Origin: Escherichia coli
GTDB lineage: Bacteria; Pseudomonadota; Gammaproteobacteria; Enterobacterales; Enterobacteriaceae
Length of the DNA: 64,000 nt
Direction: 5' to 3' (one strand)
Assembly: GCF_965641715.1 (NCBI RefSeq)
Contig: NZ_OZ282453.1
Shown here: in pieces, positions 5,441-57,090 of the stretch
Layout of the letters: every line of letters starts with the position of its first letter
Numbering within the stretch: the first letter of the stretch is position 1
Translations under genes and position numbers: made by a program
The notes under the pieces: model-generated
Told to the model about the DNA's origin: nothing
The model's database searches: none
Seen by the model: the letters and a program-made list of their open reading frames with translations, nothing else

Positions 5441-5978
5441 CACCAGCACAGAGCGCGGATGGCTGATACCAACCAGTGGCGATCCGGATTATGACGAAGC
5501 GCTCGACAGGCTGTTAAGCCAGTGGATGCGTAACGTTTCCGGTCTGTCTGCCGGGATGGTTCGTCCGCGCTGGCAGAAAGAGCAACCGCCACTGCTACCG
5601 GCTGAAACGAACTGGTGTGCGTTTGGGGTTATCGGATGGTCAGGTGATGACAGTCCGGCATTCACCAGACAGACCGATGATGGCTCTCAGCTCTGGCGGC
5701 ATGAAACGATTGAGTGTATGGCTTCGTTTTATGGTCCGGCGGGGATGGTGTATGCGTTCCGGTTTCGTGACGGTATATCTGTACCGCAGAACAACGCAGC
5801 ACTGAATGCGCTGGGGCTGTCTCTTGGCGATTACACAGGTCTGACTCCCTTCCCTGAACTTATTAATCAGCAATGGGTCCGCCGCTACGATATGACGGTG
5901 CGTCTGCGCCGGAAGGTTGTGCGCGAGTACGGTATTAAATCGCTGGTGGAAGCACCAGTCATCTTTTTCGGAGATTAA
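5370..5978 (+). CDS. phage tail completion-like protein (start uncertain, possibly TTG at 5430)
   Basis: ORF directly upstream of the sheath-like gene; alternative TTG start with GGGGGAA RBS. Confidence 0.3.
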   Translation: MVPDSFRRIVSCCRLMGEFRLSNNTSTERGWLIPTSGDPDYDEALDRLLSQWMRNVSGLSAGMVRPRWQKEQPPLLPAETNWCAFGVIGWSGDDSPAFTRQTDDGSQLWRHETIECMASFYGPAGMVYAFRFRDGISVPQNNAALNALGLSLGDYTGLTPFPELINQQWVRRYDMTVRLRRKVVREYGIKSLVEAPVIFFGD

Positions 5979-5981
5979 GCT

Positions 5982-7127
5982 ATGGCACAGGGCTTGCCTG
6001 TATCAAACGTTGTTAATGTTGATGTGATCATGTCGCCGCGTGCAGCATCAGGGCGAAATTTTGGTGCATTACTCATTCTCGGCCCGTCCACAATCATTCC
6101 GGTAAGTGAGCGCATTCGCCGTTATTCTGCCGCGGAAGATATTGGAAAAGATTTTGGCGTGGAATCACCAGAATATAAGGCTGCGCAGGTGTTTTTCTCT
6201 CAATCAACGAAACCTCAGGAGGTTTTTGTTGGTCGTTGGGTGAAAACGAAGGGAGACAGCGAACAGGCCACGCCTGAGACGCTGGAGCAGGCTGTGAATG
6301 CCATGCTCGATTATACTTCATGGTATGGGCTGGGGATTGCAGACGATGAAGATATTCCGGATGCAGACTGGCTGAAAGTGGCTGCGGCGATCGAATCCTC
6401 TTCTGTAAGCCGTATTCTGGCGATTACGACAAGCGATGAGAAATGCCTGCAGACTGCATCCAGCGATGATTTGGCATCAAAACTGAAAACCGCCGGATAT
6501 TCACGCAGTTTTATTCAGTATTCATCGGGTAATAAATACGCTGCGTTATCTGCATTTGGCCGGGCATTCACGGTTAATTTCAATGGCAGTAATACCGCGA
6601 TTACGCTCAAGTTTAAGCAGGAGCCGGGTGTCGGGTATGAAACACTGACAGTCAGCCAGGCATCGGCACTTGATGCAAAAAACTGCAATGTGTTCGTGTA
6701 CTACCAGAATGATACAGCTATCCTCCAGCAGGGAGTGATGGCTAACGGCGATTTCTTTGATGAACGCCACGGCCTGGACTGGTTACAGAATTATGTGCAG
6801 ACCAACCTCTATAACCTGCTTTATACCAGCACCACGAAAGTTCCCCAGACTGAAGCCGGTATTACCCGACTGTTATCAAATGTAGAAAAATCACTGGATC
6901 AGGCCGTTCAGAATGGACTGATTGCTCCGGGCGTATGGAACGGTGGCGACCTTGGTCAGTTGTCATCAGGTGACACGCTGCCCAAAGGTTATTACGTATA
7001 CGCCCAGCCGCTGGATGAACAGGCACAATCAGAACGTGAAGCCCGTAAGGCTCCGGTGATTCAGGCTGCAATAAAACTTGCAGGCGCGGTTCATTACGCT
7101 GACGTACAGATTAACGTTGTTCGCTAA
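5982..7127 (+). CDS. phage tail sheath-like protein
   Basis: 381-aa ORF immediately before tube-like and chaperone genes; order sheath-tube-chaperone-tape measure. Confidence 0.5.
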
Positions 7128-7137
7128 GGGGAAGTGA

Positions 7138-7578
7138 ATGTCTACCTATTCTTTTATGGATGTCACTGCGACGCTGACCGGCCCGACCGGTTCGATTGAC
7201 CTCGGGTACGGTTCTGCAAGTTCTGAAGAGGGGATTGTGGTTGCGATGGGCGGTCCTAAAAACACCATGATCATCGGTGCTGATGGCGAAGTGATGCACA
7301 GTCTCCATGCAGATAAAAGCGGGACGATCACCGTTAACCTTCTGAAGACATCACCGACAAATAAAAAATTGTCGCTGGCGTATAACGCACAGAGCCAGTC
7401 TTCTGCCACATGGGGGAATAACGTTATTGTGATCCGAAACAAGGTCAGCGGCGACATCATCACGGCACGTAGTGTTGCGTTCCAGAAACAACCGGATAAT
7501 GCCAACGCTAAAACCGGTAATACGATGCCGTGGGTGTTTGACTGCGGCAAGATTGACCAGGTTCTCGGGGAGTTTTAA
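7138..7578 (+). CDS. phage tail tube-like protein
   Basis: 146-aa ORF between sheath-like gene and tail assembly chaperone. Confidence 0.5.
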   Translation: MSTYSFMDVTATLTGPTGSIDLGYGSASSEEGIVVAMGGPKNTMIIGADGEVMHSLHADKSGTITVNLLKTSPTNKKLSLAYNAQSQSSATWGNNVIVIRNKVSGDIITARSVAFQKQPDNANAKTGNTMPWVFDCGKIDQVLGEF

Positions 7579-7581
7579 TAC

Positions 7582-8034
7582 ATGGAATTCGAAATCAAAG
7601 GCGTGAAATATCGCGTGGCAAAACTCAGCGTTTTTGACCAGCTGAAAGTGACCCGCAAACTTCTGCCGGTACTGGCGGGAATGATGTCAGATTTCGGGAG
7701 CATTCGCTCCCTGTTGCCTGCTGATGGCAAAATCGACACCGTGAAATTCGATCAGTTGAAACCGGTATTTGAAACCCTGCTTCCGCGTATCGCTGAGGAA
7801 CTGTCTTCCCTGACTGAAGAAGACACCAACGCGATTATTCATCCGTGCCTGGCCGTAGTATCACGTAAGCACATGGACGGATGGACGCCGGTATTTAAAA
7901 GCGGTCAGCTGATGTTCGATGATATCGACCTGCTAACCATGCTGCAGCTGGTGGCGCGGGTGGTCGCCGATTCGCTGGGAAATTTTTTGCCCGTGAGCCC
8001 TACCAGCCCGACGCCGGGCCAGCTTCAGGGTTGA
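7582..8034 (+). CDS. phage tail assembly chaperone
   Basis: 150-aa acidic protein directly upstream of the tape-measure gene; contains slippery heptamer T TTT TTG near its 3' end. Confidence 0.5.
   Translation: MEFEIKGVKYRVAKLSVFDQLKVTRKLLPVLAGMMSDFGSIRSLLPADGKIDTVKFDQLKPVFETLLPRIAEELSSLTEEDTNAIIHPCLAVVSRKHMDGWTPVFKSGQLMFDDIDLLTMLQLVARVVADSLGNFLPVSPTSPTPGQLQG
7983..7989 (+). promoter_or_regulatory. putative -1 programmed ribosomal frameshift site (T TTT TTG)
   Basis: Heptamer identical to the one in the P2-like E gene at 59153..59159; the -1 frame is open from here to 8222. Confidence 0.45.
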
Positions 8035-8222
8035 CCCTCAACAGCCTACCAGACGGGCTGTCTTATCTCCTTGACCCGGTTGATGCCGGGTTAATCCCTT
8101 ATTACGCGCTGAAGGATGGATCAATCGATCTGTGCGATATCGCGCTGATGAATGACCACCTGGCCGTTAAGGCTGACAACCAGCGCCGTATAGAGAAATG
8201 GAGAGAGGATAATGAACGCTGA
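8031..8222 (+). CDS. frameshift extension of tail assembly chaperone (-1 frame)
   Basis: -1 frame relative to 7582..8034, open across the slippery site. Confidence 0.4.
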   Translation: MTLNSLPDGLSYLLDPVDAGLIPYYALKDGSIDLCDIALMNDHLAVKADNQRRIEKWREDNER

Positions 8223-9582
8223 GACTATTAAAGATTTCCTCGTCTCGCTTGGTTTCGATATCGACGAAGCTGGCGCGGAAAAGTTCGATTCAGTCCTGGC
8301 CGGCACGACCGCAAACGCTATCAAAATGGGGCTGGCCGTCGAAGGTGCCGCGCTTACCGTGGTGGCCTTCACGGCTAAGATCGCCTCCGGTCTGGATAAT
8401 CTCTACTGGGCGTCACAGCGCACTGGCGCGACGGTACAGGGGATTCAGTCTATTGGCTATGCGGTTTCCCAAGTGGGCGGCAGCGTAGACGCGGCGCGCT
8501 CCTCTCTGGAAAGCCTCTCCCGATTTGTGCGTAACAATCCCGGCGCGGAAGGCTTCCTGAATCGCCTGGGCGTACAGACCCGTGACGCCAGCGGTAACAT
8601 GCGTGACATGGCCGCTATCTTTACGGGTGTCGGCCAGAAGCTCAGCAGCATGCCGTACTACCGGGCTAACCAGTATGCGCAGATGCTGGGGATTGACGAA
8701 AACACCCTCATGGCGATGCGCCGGGGTGTGGGCGGTTTCTCCGGGCACTACAGCGCAATGGCGAAGGCTATCGGCTTTAATGCTGACGAGGCGGCCAGAA
8801 GCTCCAATAAGTTCATGACTTCTCTGCGCGAGTTCGGCGCGATGGCAGGCATGGCCCGTGACAAAATCGGCTCTAATCTTGCTGGTGGTCTGGCGGGTTC
8901 GCTGGACACGCTGCGCCGTCATATTCTGGATAATTTCCCGCGCATCGAGCAGACCCTGACGAAAGCCATAAAAGGCATTCTGGCGCTCGGGGACATCATC
9001 GGGCGGTTGTTCTTCCGGCTTATTGAGGGGACATCCAGCCTTATTACCTGGTGGCAATCGCTGGATAAGCAAACCCGGGAGCTGATCTCGCTGTTTGGCG
9101 CACTGACGATTGCGCTGCGCATTCTGAACAGTACGTTCTGGATGTCGCCGGTTGGCCTCATTACCGCGCTGGCGGCGGGGATTGCCCTCCTGTGGGAGGA
9201 CTATCAGACCTGGAAGGAAGGCGGCGACAGCCTGATTGACTGGGGCAAGTGGAAACCGGAGGTCGATGCCGCGCTGAAGATGGTTCGTGACCTTAAAACG
9301 ACCGTTAACGATCTGGCGAAAGCGCTGGCGAAACTACTCAATATTGACCCCAAATCATGGTCCCTGAAGTGGGATTTCAGCAACTTCATCGACCAGATGG
9401 GCGAATTCAGCAAAATGCTGAACATGATCGCCGACCTGCTCAACGCTATCAAAGATGGACGCTGGGCTGATGCCGTCAGCATCGGCAAACAGATACTTAA
9501 TCAGGGCAGCGAAAATCCGTCAGCGATGCCGATGGTTACAGACAGCGCTAACAGTACTGCCGACTGGATTAAAGAGCACTGG

Positions 9583-9593
9583 GGATTCGATCC
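9583..9593. repeat. IS186 target-site duplication, left copy (GGATTCGATCC)
   Basis: 11 bp identical to 10933..10943, directly flanking the IS inverted repeats. Confidence 0.7.
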
Positions 9594-10932
9594 CATAAGC
9601 GCTAACTTAAGGGTTGAACCATCTGAAGAATGCGACGCCTCGGTGCCTCGTTAAGACGATGCCTCGCGTTCTTCAATTGCGTTTTGTAGGCTGTCAGGGA
9701 TACTGTCCCACGAATGGCCACCTGTAAGCTCCAGATGACCATTTTTGTTATTCTCCACAACGAGTTAGTTCTTCTTTTCGGATCCGGCACTTCTGGGGGG
9801 GAAATCCAGCGATGGCTGGATTATGTCGTCAATTAAAAATGCGGCGAGTAGATTAGCAAATATCCACGCTTTCGCGAGTTCAGGTTCCTTTGCACGCAAA
9901 GCATCCAGGTGCAGCAAACTTTTGAGCCGCTTAAAAGCCAGTTCAATTTGCCATCGCAGACGGTAACAATCAGCCACTTGCTCTGCTGAATATTCATCTT
10001 CCGGTAATGATGTTAGCAATAGCACATGGCCCGCTGCTTCCAGCGTTTCCGCCTGAACTACTCGTCCTTTTCGACGATTCTCGCTGAGCAGTCGGGTTTT
10101 ACTGATTAATGCTTTTTCGGGAGGAAGTGATACGGCAATGAGACGTGCCGGAAAGGGAGCTCCGGCTTTTTTATTACCTGAATTGCCTATCATTACAGTG
10201 GTTTCACCGTTCTTACCGCAATCCAGCCCGCGCAGAAAACCCATCATGTCAAAGCGCATTCCTTCTGCAGTTAACCAGCGCAATCCTCGCCAGTGAACCC
10301 GGACGATATAATCAGCTTCTCCAAAAGCAAGTGAGCGGATACATTCGGGACGCGAACCGAATCCCCGGTCAGCAATGCGTATCTCGTCTGCCGTTTGCGC
10401 AAATCGGTCCAGCCGTTCAGCGTCTCTGCTGTCGGTTAGCTCAAAATCAGTGAACTGACAGGTATGAGGATCATATCCCATATGTAGTCGCCATTCAGCG
10501 CTGCCGCCCCCGGGCGCACTGATTGCTGTTCCATCGACAAGACGCAATCTCTTTCCGCTTGTACAACCCGTAACTGCGGCGCGTACAGCAAGTGTTTGTG
10601 CGGCAAGTATGCCAAACCAGTCGGCGGCATTCCGCAGCCGCTTCAGGAGAGCCACGTCAGATAATGTTGCAACGTCATGGAGCTGAGCCCATGCAGTGAC
10701 TTCACGTAATGACATCCCCCCGGGGCCGTAAGCCAGCCCCAGACGTAGCAGAGTTGCAGCATCACGAATTTCGCGGCGGCGGGTTAGAGCCCCGGCATTA
10801 CGTGCCGAAGTATCCAGTTCTTCGGGCTTACCAATATGGGCCAGAATTGCTGACCAGTTATCGTGAGAGTAATTCATCGGCACGTTAAATCATATCAGGC
10901 GTAATACCACAACCCTTAAGTTAGCGCTTATG
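9594..10932 (-). mobile_element. IS186 insertion sequence
   Basis: 23-bp perfect terminal inverted repeats CATAAGCGCTAACTTAAGGGTTG (9594..9616 and reverse complement 10910..10932) around a 372-aa IS4-family transposase. Confidence 0.85.
9765..10883 (-). CDS. insL: IS186 transposase
   Basis: 372-aa ORF beginning MPMNYSHDNWSAILAHIGKPEELD..., recognised as IS186 InsL. Confidence 0.8.
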   Translation of the reverse strand: MPMNYSHDNWSAILAHIGKPEELDTSARNAGALTRRREIRDAATLLRLGLAYGPGGMSLREVTAWAQLHDVATLSDVALLKRLRNAADWFGILAAQTLAVRAAVTGCTSGKRLRLVDGTAISAPGGGSAEWRLHMGYDPHTCQFTDFELTDSRDAERLDRFAQTADEIRIADRGFGSRPECIRSLAFGEADYIVRVHWRGLRWLTAEGMRFDMMGFLRGLDCGKNGETTVMIGNSGNKKAGAPFPARLIAVSLPPEKALISKTRLLSENRRKGRVVQAETLEAAGHVLLLTSLPEDEYSAEQVADCYRLRWQIELAFKRLKSLLHLDALRAKEPELAKAWIFANLLAAFLIDDIIQPSLDFPPRSAGSEKKN

Positions 10933-10943
10933 GGATTCGATCC
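10933..10943. repeat. IS186 target-site duplication, right copy
   Basis: Identical 11 bp to 9583..9593. Confidence 0.7.
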
Positions 10944-11549
10944 CCGCAGTGTGGGCCGGACGGTACGCGGCTGGTTTGGTGATGATGAGCCGGAACAACA
11001 TGCACAGGCTACGAAACGAGGAGAGCGGAATAACAATCCGGGAAACCTTAATTTTGCTGGTCAGGCGGGGGCTTCTCTTGAACACCCGGGCGGGCGATTT
11101 GCCAGATTTGAAACTGCCTTTGATGGATTACGGGCTCTTGCTCGTCAGTTAATGTTGTACGCCGGGCGAGGAATAAACAGTGTGGAAAAAATTATCTCTA
11201 CCTGGGCACCTGCCTCTGATAATAACAACACAACTGCGTATATCAGGGCTGTATCGCAACGACTGGGAGTGGATCCCCGGGCTGCCCTGAATATGAGCGA
11301 TCCGAAAACCATGTCAGCATTGATGAGCAGCATTATCCAGCATGAAAATGGAAGAAATATCTATTCTCGAGCGCTGATTAATAAGGCTGCCGTGGCGGGA
11401 ATTAGTGGCAAAATGACAGAGGTTAACCAGCAAAATACCTACCACATTTACGGTGGCGGAGATCCGCACGCTGTCGGTAATGAGGTTGCACGTCGGCAAC
11501 AGTCTGCAAATGCTCAGGTCATGCGAAGTAATCAGGTGAGGGTGGGTTA

Positions 11550-12137
11550 GTGGATATTCTCTCTACACTTTTTCATCAGCAGAGCAGAAAAATAGGAATG
11601 ATTGTTCCCAGTGTTGTTATTTCAGAGAAGCATACAGATATGCTTGAAATAACCGAGCATCCGGTAGAGGTCGGGGCTGCTGTCGCTGATCATGCCTATA
11701 AAAAACCGTCAGAAGTGGTGATGGAGGTTGGTTTCGCCGGTGGCGGCACATTGCTGGATTTTGCCAGTAACCTGACGGCTACCAGCCTGCTCGGCCTGAG
11801 TCCTCAGCAGACGTATCAGGAGCTACTGGATCTGCAGGAAAGCCGTATCCCCTTCGATGTGGTAACCGGTAAACGGCTGTACAGCAACATGTTGATCCGG
11901 GCGCTGGAAGTGACGACGGACAAGACAACCGAAAATGTCCTGTCCGCCGTCCTTACCCTGAGGGAGGTCCTTATCTCCCGGACACAGCAGATTACCGTCG
12001 CGGATAAAACCAACATGAAGGAAGGGGCCAGCACGTCGGCGGTACAGAATAGCGGCAACAAAACCACAAAGCCTCCAGATACTTCACTGCTGAAAAGCAT
12101 TACGGGTAACGTGGCGTCATTACTAGGAGGCGGCTAA
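11550..12137 (+). CDS. phage tail protein (possibly gpU-like)
   Basis: 195-aa ORF immediately after tape measure. Confidence 0.3.
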   Translation: MDILSTLFHQQSRKIGMIVPSVVISEKHTDMLEITEHPVEVGAAVADHAYKKPSEVVMEVGFAGGGTLLDFASNLTATSLLGLSPQQTYQELLDLQESRIPFDVVTGKRLYSNMLIRALEVTTDKTTENVLSAVLTLREVLISRTQQITVADKTNMKEGASTSAVQNSGNKTTKPPDTSLLKSITGNVASLLGGG

Positions 12138-16204: not shown

Positions 16205-17403
16205 TGGCTCTGAACCTTGATTCTCTCGGTTTATCTGCAAAGGTAACCGCGGAGGGGATCAGTGCGCCTGATTATCAGACGATACTCAGCACCCTGATTA
16301 GCTATTTTCAGCAGATTTATGGCAGTGATGCCTACCTCGAACCGGACAGCAAAGACGGCCAGATGGTGGCTCTGATGGCGCTGGCGATTCATGATGCCAA
16401 TAATATGGCGATAACTGTCTACAACTGTTTTTCACCGGCAACCGGCTATGGGGCTGCACTCACCAGTAACGTGAAAATAAATGGTATTTCACGTAAAGGC
16501 GCGACGAACTCTACGGTTGATTTGCTTCTTACAGGAACTGCCGGAACAACCATCATTAATGGCAGCGTGAAAGACAGTAATAATGTGATATGGCGTTTGC
16601 CTGCTTCAGTGGTGGTCGGCGTGGATGGTACAGTGATGGCGACCGCAACATGTTCCGTCAGTGGTGCAGTGGCGGCGCTGGCTGGAACTATCACTGAAAT
16701 TAATACGCCAACCCGTGGCTGGGTTTCGGTAACTAATCCTGCTGCGGCTACTGTTGGCTCTCCGGCAGAAACTGATGCTGAGTTACGTATCCGCCAGTCG
16801 CAAAGTGTTGCATTGCCATCAATAACCCCATTTGAAGCACTGGATGGTGCTGTTTCTAATGTTACCGGTGTAACCCGCCACAAACTCTATGAAAACGATA
16901 CTGGTTCGGAGGACGGTAACGGGTTACCGCCACACTCTGTTGCTGTAATTGTGGATGGCGGTGATGTGACGGATATTGCTCAGGCTATCAGAGGGAATAA
17001 AGGCCAGGGGACAGCCACTCACGGTACAACATCCGTTACGGTTCCGGATAAATACGGCAATCCCCATGTAATCAAATTCTCGCGTTCCAGTGATGTACCT
17101 GTTTATGCCCGGATTAAATTAAAAGTTTTTACGGGTTATACCTCACAGATAGGGCAGCAGATCCAGCAGGCTATTTCCGACTATATCAATAGTCTGATGA
17201 TTGGTGATTCGGTCCTTTTAAGTCGCATTTACTCACCGGCGAATCTTGGCGTGGTGAGTGGCGGGAATGCACGCTATTACGATATTCAGGAACTGACGAT
17301 TGGGAAATCCCAGGGGACTTTGTCGTCATCAAACATTGATATCAGATATAACGAATCTGCGTCCTGTACCCCGGAAAATATCGTTATAACGGTGGAGTCA
17401 TGA
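16204..17403 (+). CDS. phage baseplate protein (gpJ-like)
   Basis: 399-aa ORF following the W-like gene. Confidence 0.45.
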   Translation: MALNLDSLGLSAKVTAEGISAPDYQTILSTLISYFQQIYGSDAYLEPDSKDGQMVALMALAIHDANNMAITVYNCFSPATGYGAALTSNVKINGISRKGATNSTVDLLLTGTAGTTIINGSVKDSNNVIWRLPASVVVGVDGTVMATATCSVSGAVAALAGTITEINTPTRGWVSVTNPAAATVGSPAETDAELRIRQSQSVALPSITPFEALDGAVSNVTGVTRHKLYENDTGSEDGNGLPPHSVAVIVDGGDVTDIAQAIRGNKGQGTATHGTTSVTVPDKYGNPHVIKFSRSSDVPVYARIKLKVFTGYTSQIGQQIQQAISDYINSLMIGDSVLLSRIYSPANLGVVSGGNARYYDIQELTIGKSQGTLSSSNIDIRYNESASCTPENIVITVES

Positions 17404-18080
17404 GCAAATACACCGAACTAATCACAAACTACCACGCCTCCAAACCTAAATTTCTTTCACATGTTGATCTGATGACCCGGCCGCTTATTGATGTTGCGGC
17501 TGCCACCAGAGGGCTGATTACTGCATTTGATATCGACTCTGCGGTTGGTGTGCAACTTGACATTCTGGGATTGTGGATCGGACGTAGCCGTGTTGTCAGC
17601 CAGCCTATTTCAGGTGTCTATTTCAGCTGGGATACCGACGGGATTGGATATGATCAGGGGGTATGGCAGGGACCATACGATCCTGATTCAGGATACATGT
17701 ATCTCAGCGATGAAACTTATCGTGTCATTCTTAAAGCGAAGACTGCGATTAATAACTGGGACGGACGGAATGATTCGCTTCCGGCAATTCTTGACGCGGC
17801 AACAGCAGGATCCGGGCTGCGAATGCAGATAGTCGATAACCAGGACATGACGATATCGGTCAGGGTCTTTCCTGATACTGATATTTCAGATGTATCGCGT
17901 GAGTTAATTGCGGCAATTAAACAGGGGTATCTCACAGTAAAAGCCGCCGGGGTATGGGCGGGTGGCATTGAAACACCTTCGGTGGAAACCCCATCGGAAG
18001 GCTCAAAATTTTTTGGTTTTGATATGGATAACGAATTCATCAGTGGTTTTGATGTAGGGGCATGGGGAGTATTACTCTGA
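17400..18080 (+). CDS. phage tail protein (gpI-like)
   Basis: 226-aa ORF preceding the tail fibre gene. Confidence 0.4.
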
Positions 18081-53696: not shown

Positions 53697-54590
53697 CTAT
53701 TTCCAGTTACAAGCAGATTGAAGCGGTTTTAGCGCGTTTGACAGGCCGTTTAAATTGAAAGTTGCACTTACGGGGCTCTCATTATAAGGCGTTATTTTTG
53801 TATACATTTTGCTTGAGTTGGCTAGTTTTCGGATGAAATCAATGTCATTACCTTTATAAAAAACAGCCTTTGTATCTGTAGATACTAGCCAGTTTCGCTC
53901 AACTGCTTTCTGTTTATCAAGGCGATAAAGCATGCTGGTTTGTTCAAGGCCTAAATATACATCCCAACTAAGAAATACTTCGGTTTTCTTTTCTCGGCAA
54001 GCTATAAACAGAGTAGGAGTAACCGCTTCTCCAAATGGAGTTCTGATATAATCATCACTTTCTAACGATAAAATTACATTTTTCGAATCATCAATTGGCG
54101 ATGTAGTAATGGATGTGTGCCATTTTCCTACATCTGTGGCTTTCTCTAATTTTGATTCAGCTTGAACGGCTTTATCCTGTGGGAATAGTTTATCGTAGCA
54201 GTTTAGTCTGGCTTCTTTATCATTTTCTGCACGACATTTAGATATCTCAGAAAGATTTGGTTGCTGAGCCTCTGTTGTTACTGGCTTTTCCGTTTTAGAT
54301 TTTGAGTTTACAGATGGAATAAATGTTGGAGAAAAGAAACGATCATAACAAGATAAACGTCTATCATCATCTTTCTCATCAGGGCATTGATCTCTGCTTT
54401 CGAATTTTTCAGCAACTTTCGTTCGAGTCGGTTGTATTGACTTATCGTAACAAGAAAGTCTGTCTTTATTATTTTCTATTGCTCGGCACTGGAGTACTGC
54501 ATTGAAGTTCTTATGTTCAGTTGCTGCGTGAACAGGCAGTACACTAATTGATAAAAATGATGCGCCTATAGAAAAAATTATATTTTTCAT
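53697..54590 (-). CDS. secreted protein with three Cys-containing repeats
   Basis: 297 aa; signal peptide MKNIIFSIGASFLSISVLPVHA; repeats RLSCYDK / RLSCYDR / RLNCYDK; AT-rich. Confidence 0.5.
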   Translation of the reverse strand: MKNIIFSIGASFLSISVLPVHAATEHKNFNAVLQCRAIENNKDRLSCYDKSIQPTRTKVAEKFESRDQCPDEKDDDRRLSCYDRFFSPTFIPSVNSKSKTEKPVTTEAQQPNLSEISKCRAENDKEARLNCYDKLFPQDKAVQAESKLEKATDVGKWHTSITTSPIDDSKNVILSLESDDYIRTPFGEAVTPTLFIACREKKTEVFLSWDVYLGLEQTSMLYRLDKQKAVERNWLVSTDTKAVFYKGNDIDFIRKLANSSKMYTKITPYNESPVSATFNLNGLSNALKPLQSACNWK

Positions 54591-55823: not shown

Positions 55824-56933
55824 TCACTCTGTTTCTGCTATCCATTCCGGGATTTTTGCTTCAAGCTCAAGCTGCGTGGTAAAGCCACTGTTATCAATGG
55901 TGTGCTCGGCTTTCGCAATAATCCAGTCCTGATTATCAATCTCGCTTTTAAATCCTGTTACCGTGCCATGCATTTCGGGGTAGAGTTCTGCTCGTCCACG
56001 TGTCAGCGTGATGGAGAATGATGCGGCTCCGCGTTGTAGTTGTTGCCACTTTGCCGCCGCTGCGCGTCTTGCTGCCTGCTCGTTCTGATAAGTCTTGCGT
56101 AACACAAACACATTGCCTTCCGCGCCTTCCATATAATCACCTTCACGGCTGCTGCTTTTCTCTTTTTTCGGTTTTGGCGGTTTGCGGCGTTTCACGCTGA
56201 CTTTTTTCTTTTTCCCGTAATTAAGATCAAGCCAGTAAGCGCGTACCCCCGTATACGCTTCGCGGTCAGCAATGCGGAACTGATGGCGATCGCCACTGCT
56301 GCGTGTGATGGCGAACGATGGCAACGGCTGGCCCTGTGCGTTCACGCCACCGCCGGGCATGATGAATAACAGATTACCGCTTTTTACCGTGGTGATTGCG
56401 CCCAGCATTTCCGCCATGCGCGTAAGGAAGGACATGTCACTTTCTTCGGTCTGGTCGGCGTGGTCGATTTCGATATCCATCAGCATTTCGCTGATTTGCG
56501 GTTTCAGACCGTACCGATGAGCGATGGCGGATACCACACGCTCAACGGTCACATCATGCCAGGACACCTCACGTTTAACGTTAAATTCATCCCGAAAATC
56601 TGCGCTTCTGGCTGAAACAGTCAGCCTGTCCGGCGGTCCTTCGTGTGCGATTTCATCAACAATGTAAGAGCCTTTTTCTGCCAGCGGTTCGCCTTTCCAG
56701 CCAATGAGAACCGTCAGGCGCGCGCCCCGTGGCGGTAGCTGCAACTGACCATCCGCATCATCCAGCGTGATGGTTAGCTGATCTGCCTCAAATCCCCGGT
56801 TGTCGGTCAGCGACAGGCTCATCAGGCGCTCTGCCACTCCGGACAGCGTTTTACCCTCCGCGAGAATATCAAAATCCGGCATTTTTACGGGGTCTGTGCT
56901 CTGACTGAGCAATTGCATGGTGGTATCGGTCAT
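55824..56933 (-). CDS. P2-like tail protein D (late control gene D)
   Basis: 369 aa from ATG with RBS GGGAGGAAG; gpD-like sequence with lysine-rich linker. Confidence 0.7.
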   Translation of the reverse strand: MTDTTMQLLSQSTDPVKMPDFDILAEGKTLSGVAERLMSLSLTDNRGFEADQLTITLDDADGQLQLPPRGARLTVLIGWKGEPLAEKGSYIVDEIAHEGPPDRLTVSARSADFRDEFNVKREVSWHDVTVERVVSAIAHRYGLKPQISEMLMDIEIDHADQTEESDMSFLTRMAEMLGAITTVKSGNLLFIMPGGGVNAQGQPLPSFAITRSSGDRHQFRIADREAYTGVRAYWLDLNYGKKKKVSVKRRKPPKPKKEKSSSREGDYMEGAEGNVFVLRKTYQNEQAARRAAAAKWQQLQRGAASFSITLTRGRAELYPEMHGTVTGFKSEIDNQDWIIAKAEHTIDNSGFTTQLELEAKIPEWIAETE

Positions 56934-57090
56934 CTGCTTCCTCCCTGTGCGGCATGGTCGCATGTGCGTGTGGAGGGGGTTACTGCTTTTTGTTGTCGCC
57001 GTGGCGGGAGAACGGCGCAGGGGTGAGATTACGCGCGTGGTGGGTGATGATTGTTGCCGAATCATTTAACGGATACAAGGGGCTGAAGCT

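Follow-up and report, generated by a model that had tools for sequence, protein, structure and literature searches.

Probable programmed -1 frameshift sites in genes for tail assembly chaperones in two Escherichia coli prophages, with DUF6889 read as a frameshift-encoded domain

Frameshifting of the kind found at lambda G/GT is widespread in tailed phages (PMC5009743). The slip in the lambda siphovirus tail gene occurs on G_GGA_AAG, as reviewed there (Levin 1993; Xu, Hendrix and Duda 2004, 2013, 2014). For phage P2, PMC3091744 and PMC3931495 describe a -1 shift on TTTTTTG that yields E (91 aa) and E+E' (142 aa); E' is reported to be made as an extension of E (citing Christie 2002), and a downstream structure is reported to be lacking. 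A -1 frameshift has also been described in the chaperone gene of Pakpunavirus (phage Adele; PMC12846349, 2025), where a conserved poly-T motif, GTTTTT, is located at the 3' end of the short gene. The argument made there was an uninterrupted -1 frame across many alleles, and the downstream ORF was routinely annotated as hypothetical.

The window analyzed here, a 64,000-nucleotide stretch of E. coli chromosome (contig NZ_OZ282453.1), carried two phage tail modules in which a pair of overlapping ORFs was located between the tube and tape-measure genes, with in-frame heptamers inside the -1 overlap (Table 1). Site 1 is within a SEN34-like myovirus prophage (prophage 1), and site 2 is within a P88-like prophage (Xuanwuvirus, P2 family; prophage 2). 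We read both as places where ribosomes are programmed to shift by -1 within a tail assembly chaperone gene, the counterparts of lambda G/GT and P2 E/E+E'; judged from the sequence, the probability of this reading is roughly 85%. From this anatomy we infer that most ribosomes would terminate normally, releasing a short chaperone of 150 aa (site 1) or 121 aa (site 2), and that a minority would shift by -1 on the U-rich cassette and continue into a predicted fusion of 213 or 176 aa, respectively. The C-terminal domain gained by the fusion would be DUF6889 at the first site and GpE/E' at the second. On the lambda model, the N-terminal part common to both products may coat the tape-measure protein and the extension may recruit the tube protein, its presumed binding partner, with neither product staying in the virion.

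Table 1. Features of the two prophage tail modules (positions are those of the window).
Prophage	Feature	Position	Strand	Basis or remark
1	Tail sheath gene	5982..7127	+	Pfam DUF3383, E = 2.9e-100; RefSeq 'DUF3383 family protein'
1	Tail tube gene	7138..7578	+	Pfam KPP10_Orf10, E = 2.8e-60; RefSeq DUF3277
1	Tail assembly chaperone, short 0-frame product, 150 aa	7582..8034	+	Phage_TAC_15, PHROG 1688
1	Near-invariant block GTG GCG CGG GTG GTC GCC GAT (GTGGCGCGGGTGGTCGCCGAT)	7951..7971	+	82 unique alleles
1	Slippery cassette G_GGA_AAT_TTT_TTG	7977..7989	+	Overlapping in-frame heptamers at 7977, 7980 and 7983
1	-1 extension, 77 codons, DUF6889	7989..8222	+	Pfam DUF6889, PHROG 4364
1	Tape-measure gene, 5' part	8212..9594	+	PHROG 2276, E = 5e-203
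1	IS4-family (IS421/IS186-like) insertion	9595..10931	-	DDE_Tnp_1 and NF033592; RefSeq IS421 family
1	Tape-measure gene, 3' part	10945..11550	+	TL20 alignment resumes after the duplicated 13 bp; ORF end 11550
2	Sheath gene	57091-58275	+	Pfam Phage_sheath_1
2	Tube gene	58275-58787	+	Pfam Phage_tube, E = 7.5e-47
2	P2 gpE-like chaperone, short product, 121 aa	58842..59207	+	PHROG 103, E = 2.3e-35
2	Slippery cassette A_AAT_TTT_TTG	59150..59159	+	Two overlapping heptamers, at 59150 and 59153
2	-1 extension, 70 codons, E'-like	59159..59371	+	Pfam Phage_P2_GpE, PHROG 1756
2	Tape-measure gene	59358..62165	+	Pfam PhageMin_Tail, E = 2.3e-58; start as in P88

The short product at site 1 matched Pfam Phage_TAC_15 (E = 5.7e-32; 111.3 bits against a cut-off of 22 bits) and the 'tail assembly chaperone' family PHROG 1688 (E = 3.2e-64). 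Its extension matched Pfam DUF6889 (E = 4.1e-22; 78.1 bits against a cut-off of 23.9) and PHROG 4364, which is labelled 'unknown function'. Three heptamers, G_GGA_AAT, A_AAT_TTT and T_TTT_TTG, overlap in the cassette, and codons 1-136 of the chaperone plus the 77-codon extension make up the predicted 213-aa fusion. E. coli strain TL20 was 100% identical to the window across 5900-9594 and lacked the insertion sequence (IS); the 5' part of the tape-measure gene was collinear with the intact 662-aa gene of TL20 up to 9594. The IS carried a transposase ORF at 9765-10883 and terminal inverted repeats, and was flanked by a 13-bp target duplication, GGGATTCGATCCC, at 9582-9594 and 10932-10944. The junction between IS and tape-measure gene was found in no complete RefSeq E. 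coli genome. Because the IS interrupts the prophage 1 tape-measure gene, the site-1 frameshift probably no longer contributes to a functional tail in this strain; it is still a trait of the phage family despite the broken gene. Further along the window, a tyrosine integrase gene (23482-24675, - strand) adjoined a tRNA-Arg(CCU) gene (24801-24875, - strand); prophage 1 probably integrated there and has one of its ends there.

Prophage 2 began ~30 kb beyond the integrase/tRNA-Arg region, near a gpD-like gene (55824-57065) that adjoined a type VI secretion VasI gene (53697-54590). The site-2 chaperone aligned along its length with P2 E at 31% identity, and its match to Pfam Phage_TAC_7 (17.2 bits) was below the 25-bit cut-off. 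The extension matched Pfam Phage_P2_GpE (PF06528; E = 1.8e-12, 47 bits against a 23-bit cut-off), PHROG 1756 (E = 2.5e-38) and, in tblastn, the E+E' genes of P2, 186 and Wphi. The predicted 176-aa fusion consists of chaperone codons 1-106 followed by the 70-codon extension. Site 2 is the P2 E/E+E' arrangement. Among eight P2-family loci, the -1 frame was open in all eight and the heptamer varied. T_TTT_TTG was present in P2, SEN4, a Yersinia phage, P88 and the window, T_TTT_TTT in a Vibrio phage and G_GGA_AAG in a Mannheimia phage. In phage 503458, which is 77% identical to site 2, TTG had become ATG and A_AAT_TTT alone was left. A further 80 relatives of site 2 in viral contigs were 98-100% identical to it and thus uninformative.

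On the + strand, TTTTTTG was found at 7983-7989 (site 1) and 59153-59159 (site 2). The local codons within both 0-frame ORFs were AAT TTT TTG, showing that the heptamer is in the phase T_TTT_TTG that tandem -1 slippage needs. The initial annotation had described one heptamer, the one used by P2 E/E', in the tail chaperone genes of two unrelated-looking modules, and each element of that description held on sequence and comparative grounds. Both copies were located in slippery phase. The P2 record has the heptamer within GGT TTT TTG, beside the annotated frameshift site, and VNFLS of the window (GTA AAT TTT TTG) aligned with VGFLS of P2 (GGT TTT TTG). Homology between the site-1 and site-2 chaperones was not detected by BLASTP (E = 0.73) or hhalign (probability 0.9%), and BLASTP gave no match between the two extensions. 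Deep homology of the two chaperone families, considered as a candidate, was rejected since neither comparison of the chaperones was significant.

The -1 frame was open across 7923-8222 at site 1 and 59123-59371 at site 2, with 77 and 70 codons after the slip. It ended 11 nt inside the tape-measure gene at site 1 (ATG 8212) and 14 nt inside it at site 2 (ATG 59358, the start annotated in phage P88), in agreement with the earlier proposal of two open -1 frames, each overlapping the beginning of its tape-measure gene.

The two-frame layout at site 1 was conserved. When the predicted 213-aa fusion was used as a tblastn query, 40 phage records were matched with identity down to 32%; the match fell into two pieces in 39 of the 40, and at least 80% of the query was covered in 35. 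In all 19 phage loci examined, in which identity was ~30% at the lowest, the -1 frame ran without a stop between the slip region and the tape-measure start. The same layout was present in 119 further unique alleles, comprising 82 enteric alleles and 37 from Acinetobacter, Burkholderia and Bordetella clades, where the arrangement was kept. These loci and alleles, together with the position of the heptamers inside the -1 overlap, back the conserved programmed frameshifting that had been suggested for this DNA. Conservation of the -1 peptide in 17 phages began directly after the slip site, with F-[FY]-x-R-x-[PA]-Y followed by LPxGEDWLLRPV and then DLxDIALMND. Just after the slip, TTTTATTCAAGGGCTGCTTAC was near-identical in nucleotides between Acinetobacter and Burkholderia phages whose proteins were only ~30% identical, as dual coding predicts. 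One allele with seven T's (Logan assembly SRR23924998, locus 1896-1909) had the chaperone and DUF6889 in a single 213-aa frame with both Pfam domains, indicating that a single base in the run separates the two frames. The cluster of this fused protein contained 16 member sequences; it is a candidate variant that may be real or a homopolymer sequencing error. In GenBank, a joined 'tape measure chaperone frameshift product' is annotated in Klebsiella phage Mulock and Burkholderia phage Magia, in both cases as a prediction. Mulock CPT_Mulock_014/015 is a site-1 homologue with ~60% identity over the full fusion, the same two-frame layout and an identical cassette, GGGAAATTTTTTG. Magia gp15/gp16 is a homologue with ~40% identity over fusion residues 57-206 and the same layout, with C_CCT_TTT instead of the enteric cassette. 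The frameshift was not discussed in the Mulock genome announcement, and no mention of DUF6889 was found in the literature searched.

TTTTTTG is not rare in the window, where 35 copies were counted on both strands against ~20 expected, four of them in frame within ORFs; a common T-rich heptamer could therefore have fallen into two small ORFs by coincidence, with no recoding. Chance was surveyed in 69 long ORFs chosen greedily, which together spanned 18,905 codon positions and contained 61 in-frame X_XXY_YYZ heptamers. A -1 ORF of at least 50 codons running beyond the 0-frame stop was found in this set only for the three overlapping heptamers at 7977, 7980 and 7983. The site-2 ORF was missing from the set because a longer antisense ORF had displaced it; examined separately, it had a -1 ORF of the same kind. 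Sites 1 and 2 alone combine the heptamer with a long -1 ORF reaching beyond the stop and into the tape-measure gene; their extensions hit curated protein families, and distant relatives with no more than ~30% identity keep the combination. By this conservation, coincidence is effectively excluded. The identity between the sites extended to a 10-mer, AAATTTTTTG, with three copies in the window against 0.51 expected, a number reached in 1 of 100 shuffles. The third copy (18006-18015) was inside ORF 17400-18080 and out of slippery phase, so it is probably irrelevant. The -1 ORFs could also be independent small genes with their own starts, the DUF6889 ORF running from 8031 or 8058 to 8222 and the E'-like ORF likewise having a start of its own. 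RefSeq, Pfam and PHROGs treat them so, RefSeq with a separate 'DUF6889 family protein' (WP_042043910.1, window 8058-8222); a separate small ORF is called in several phage records, and GTG 59216 at site 2, which P2 has as well, is the annotated start in P88. However, this GTG lacks an evident ribosome-binding site, and the site-1 ORF has neither a ribosome-binding site nor a usable start codon: its first ATG or GTG is only 25 codons before the stop (none before codon 54 of 77). ORF 8031-8222 is a mechanical TTG-to-stop ORF, and its TTG is not conserved, being TTA, CTG or ATA in relatives. The RefSeq protein begins at CTG 8058, again without a ribosome-binding site, and looks like an artefact of gene calling inside the frameshift extension. 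Starts in different records are at non-equivalent positions, the conservation of the -1 peptide begins at the slip site, upstream of every proposed start, and E' of P2 is itself reported to be made as an extension of E (PMC3931495, PMC3091744). We consider independent genes very improbable. In line with the initial annotation, the sequence favors reading ORF 8031-8222 as the C-terminal portion of a fusion product. Transcriptional slippage, in which RNA polymerase would add one U in the T6 run with no ribosomal slip, is of similarly low probability. Homopolymer runs are known slippage sites (PMC5009743). One extra T does fuse the frames, as seen in the seven-T allele. However, the run is six T's here and only 3-4 in the Acinetobacter, Burkholderia and Bordetella relatives that keep the two-frame layout, which makes slippage by the polymerase unlikely; efficient bacterial transcriptional slippage needs runs of about 8-9 or more.

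Under ribosomal frameshifting, the site-1 slip would most likely involve the UUU (Phe) triplet at 7984-7986, which would occupy the A site if A_AAU_UUU (7980-7986) is used and the P site if U_UUU_UUG (7983-7989) is used. These alternatives would give products one residue apart, GNFF-ARE and GNFL-ARE, so the junction peptide would tell the heptamers apart: VVADSLGNFFAR would point to A_AAU_UUU or G_GGA_AAU, and VVADSLGNFLAR to U_UUU_UUG. T_TTT_TTG could be the sole functional slip site at site 1, as is assumed for P2. It is in frame, it is the only canonical heptamer that P2 itself has, P2 frameshifting is reported at this sequence (PMC3091744), and TTG was present in 81 of the 82 unique enteric alleles. 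In the single exception (IMG/VR contig 3300022463_000030), TTG at 7987-7989 was TTT, so that the heptamer reads T_TTT_TTT and the short product has Phe in place of Leu. However, dual coding accounts equally well for the invariance of TTG if the -1 frame is translated. Only eight of the 19 loci, each of enteric type, had T_TTT_TTG, and it was missing from every one of the 37 unique alleles from the Acinetobacter, Burkholderia and Bordetella clades; the 11 loci without it had TTT ATT, TTT ATC, TTC AGC and similar. Since the heptamer differs outside the enteric clade, its identity between sites 1 and 2 is not itself evidence. By contrast, T_TTY at the aligned Phe codon was present in 19/19 loci, a canonical heptamer in 17/19 and a canonical X_XXT_TTT in 15/19; two loci, and four unique alleles of the Burkholderia-query set, had T_TTT only, without a canonical heptamer. 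Across the 19 loci, the P-site codon covaried with the base before it (GGA-AAT, GCA-AAT, GGC-CCT, TCG-GGT). Codons GGA AAT TTT were invariant in the 82 unique enteric alleles, and Gly and Phe codons elsewhere in the gene varied; the A of GGA (7980) is required by A_AAT_TTT and not by T_TTT_TTG. The ATG of phage 503458, with A_AAT_TTT retained, also stands against T_TTT_TTG as the only slip site. In E. coli reporter tests, H_HH.U_UU.Y was among the most efficient heptamers and U_UU.Y among the best tetramers, and U_UU.U_UU.G was listed as efficient only for eukaryotes and not among the efficient E. coli heptamers (PMC4066793). Because T_TTT_TTG is confined to the enteric type, GGA is invariant and the reporter ranking favors H_HH.U_UU.Y, A_AAT_TTT (7980-7986) appears at least as likely as T_TTT_TTG to be the site-1 slip, and both may contribute; T_TTT_TTG as the sole slip site is possible but doubtful.

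A downstream stimulatory RNA structure, which the initial annotation had named as something to look for, was not found. The 91 nt after each heptamer folded no better than shuffled sequences (z = -0.53 at site 1 and -0.98 at site 2), RNAalifold on 12 diverse site-1 sequences gave 0 compensatory pairs with a covariation term of +0.09, and neither site matched Rfam at E up to 1. Synonymous variation was lowest after the slip, where dual coding leads one to expect it, and 12-26 nt upstream of the slip. The upstream block (Table 1) was nearly invariant among alleles that otherwise differed by ~30%, included an invariant rare CGG codon and was identical in phages only ~70% identical overall. A hairpin was considered as its cause and rejected (fold of 7917-7976, z = +0.27). 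A Chi site, GCTGGTGG, is located at 7947-7954; since 6 of 29 unique segments had lost Chi and kept the block, Chi explains the block partly at best. It may be speculated that GGUGG at 7959-7963, 13-19 nt upstream, acts as a Shine-Dalgarno-like stimulator, with a central mismatch to the anti-SD when judged by eye. Another proposal, which we regard as unlikely, is that G_GGA_AAU_UUU_UUG is a multi-site cassette that arose independently in two chaperone families without detectable homology, both of which have AAATTTTTTG, perhaps with GTGGCGCGGGTGGTCGCCGAT as a new upstream stimulator or attenuator that replaces a downstream structure at site 1.

Chi sites were generally frequent in the window, with 11 copies against 1.9 expected, 10 of the 11 on the + strand (1765, 5942, 7947, 8881, 13288, 15305 and five more). 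Six co-oriented copies were within ~14 kb of the structural module of prophage 1, and none was in the prophage 2 part (~55.8-64 kb).

The mechanism proposed here is ordinary and already known, and the main yield is a correction of annotation; the understanding of phage tail assembly and of frameshifting is unchanged. In RefSeq, Pfam (DUF6889) and PHROGs (phrog_4364), the -1 ORF of this prophage family, which is widespread, stands as a separate protein whose function is unknown. DUF6889/PHROG 4364 would best be re-annotated as the frameshift-encoded C-terminal domain of the long tail assembly chaperone. The slip codon conserved in the site-1 family is UUU/UUC (Phe), usually within X_XXU_UUU.

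Compared with the described systems, the Pakpunavirus case concerns virulent Pseudomonas phages, another family on another host, and is likened here by description; its argument, an open -1 frame across alleles, is the same as that for site 1, and the tube family at site 1, Pfam KPP10_Orf10, is named after a Pseudomonas phage. Lambda G/GT has in common with sites 1 and 2 the position of the gene, a short and a long product that share an N-terminus, and the presumed role of loading the tube protein onto the tape measure. However, the tails here are contractile, the slip codon is UUU and there is no sequence similarity to lambda. P2 has the heptamer and the gene order in common with site 1, whose proteins have no detectable homology to P2 E or E'. 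P2 E and the site-2 chaperone are only 31% identical, the latter being 30 residues longer, and site 2 has the extra overlapping heptamer A_AAT_TTT, which P2 lacks. As in P2, the site-2 pair is located between the tube (FII) and tape-measure (T) genes, the extension is a Phage_P2_GpE domain, the heptamer is at the aligned V-x-F-L-S, and no downstream structure is supported.
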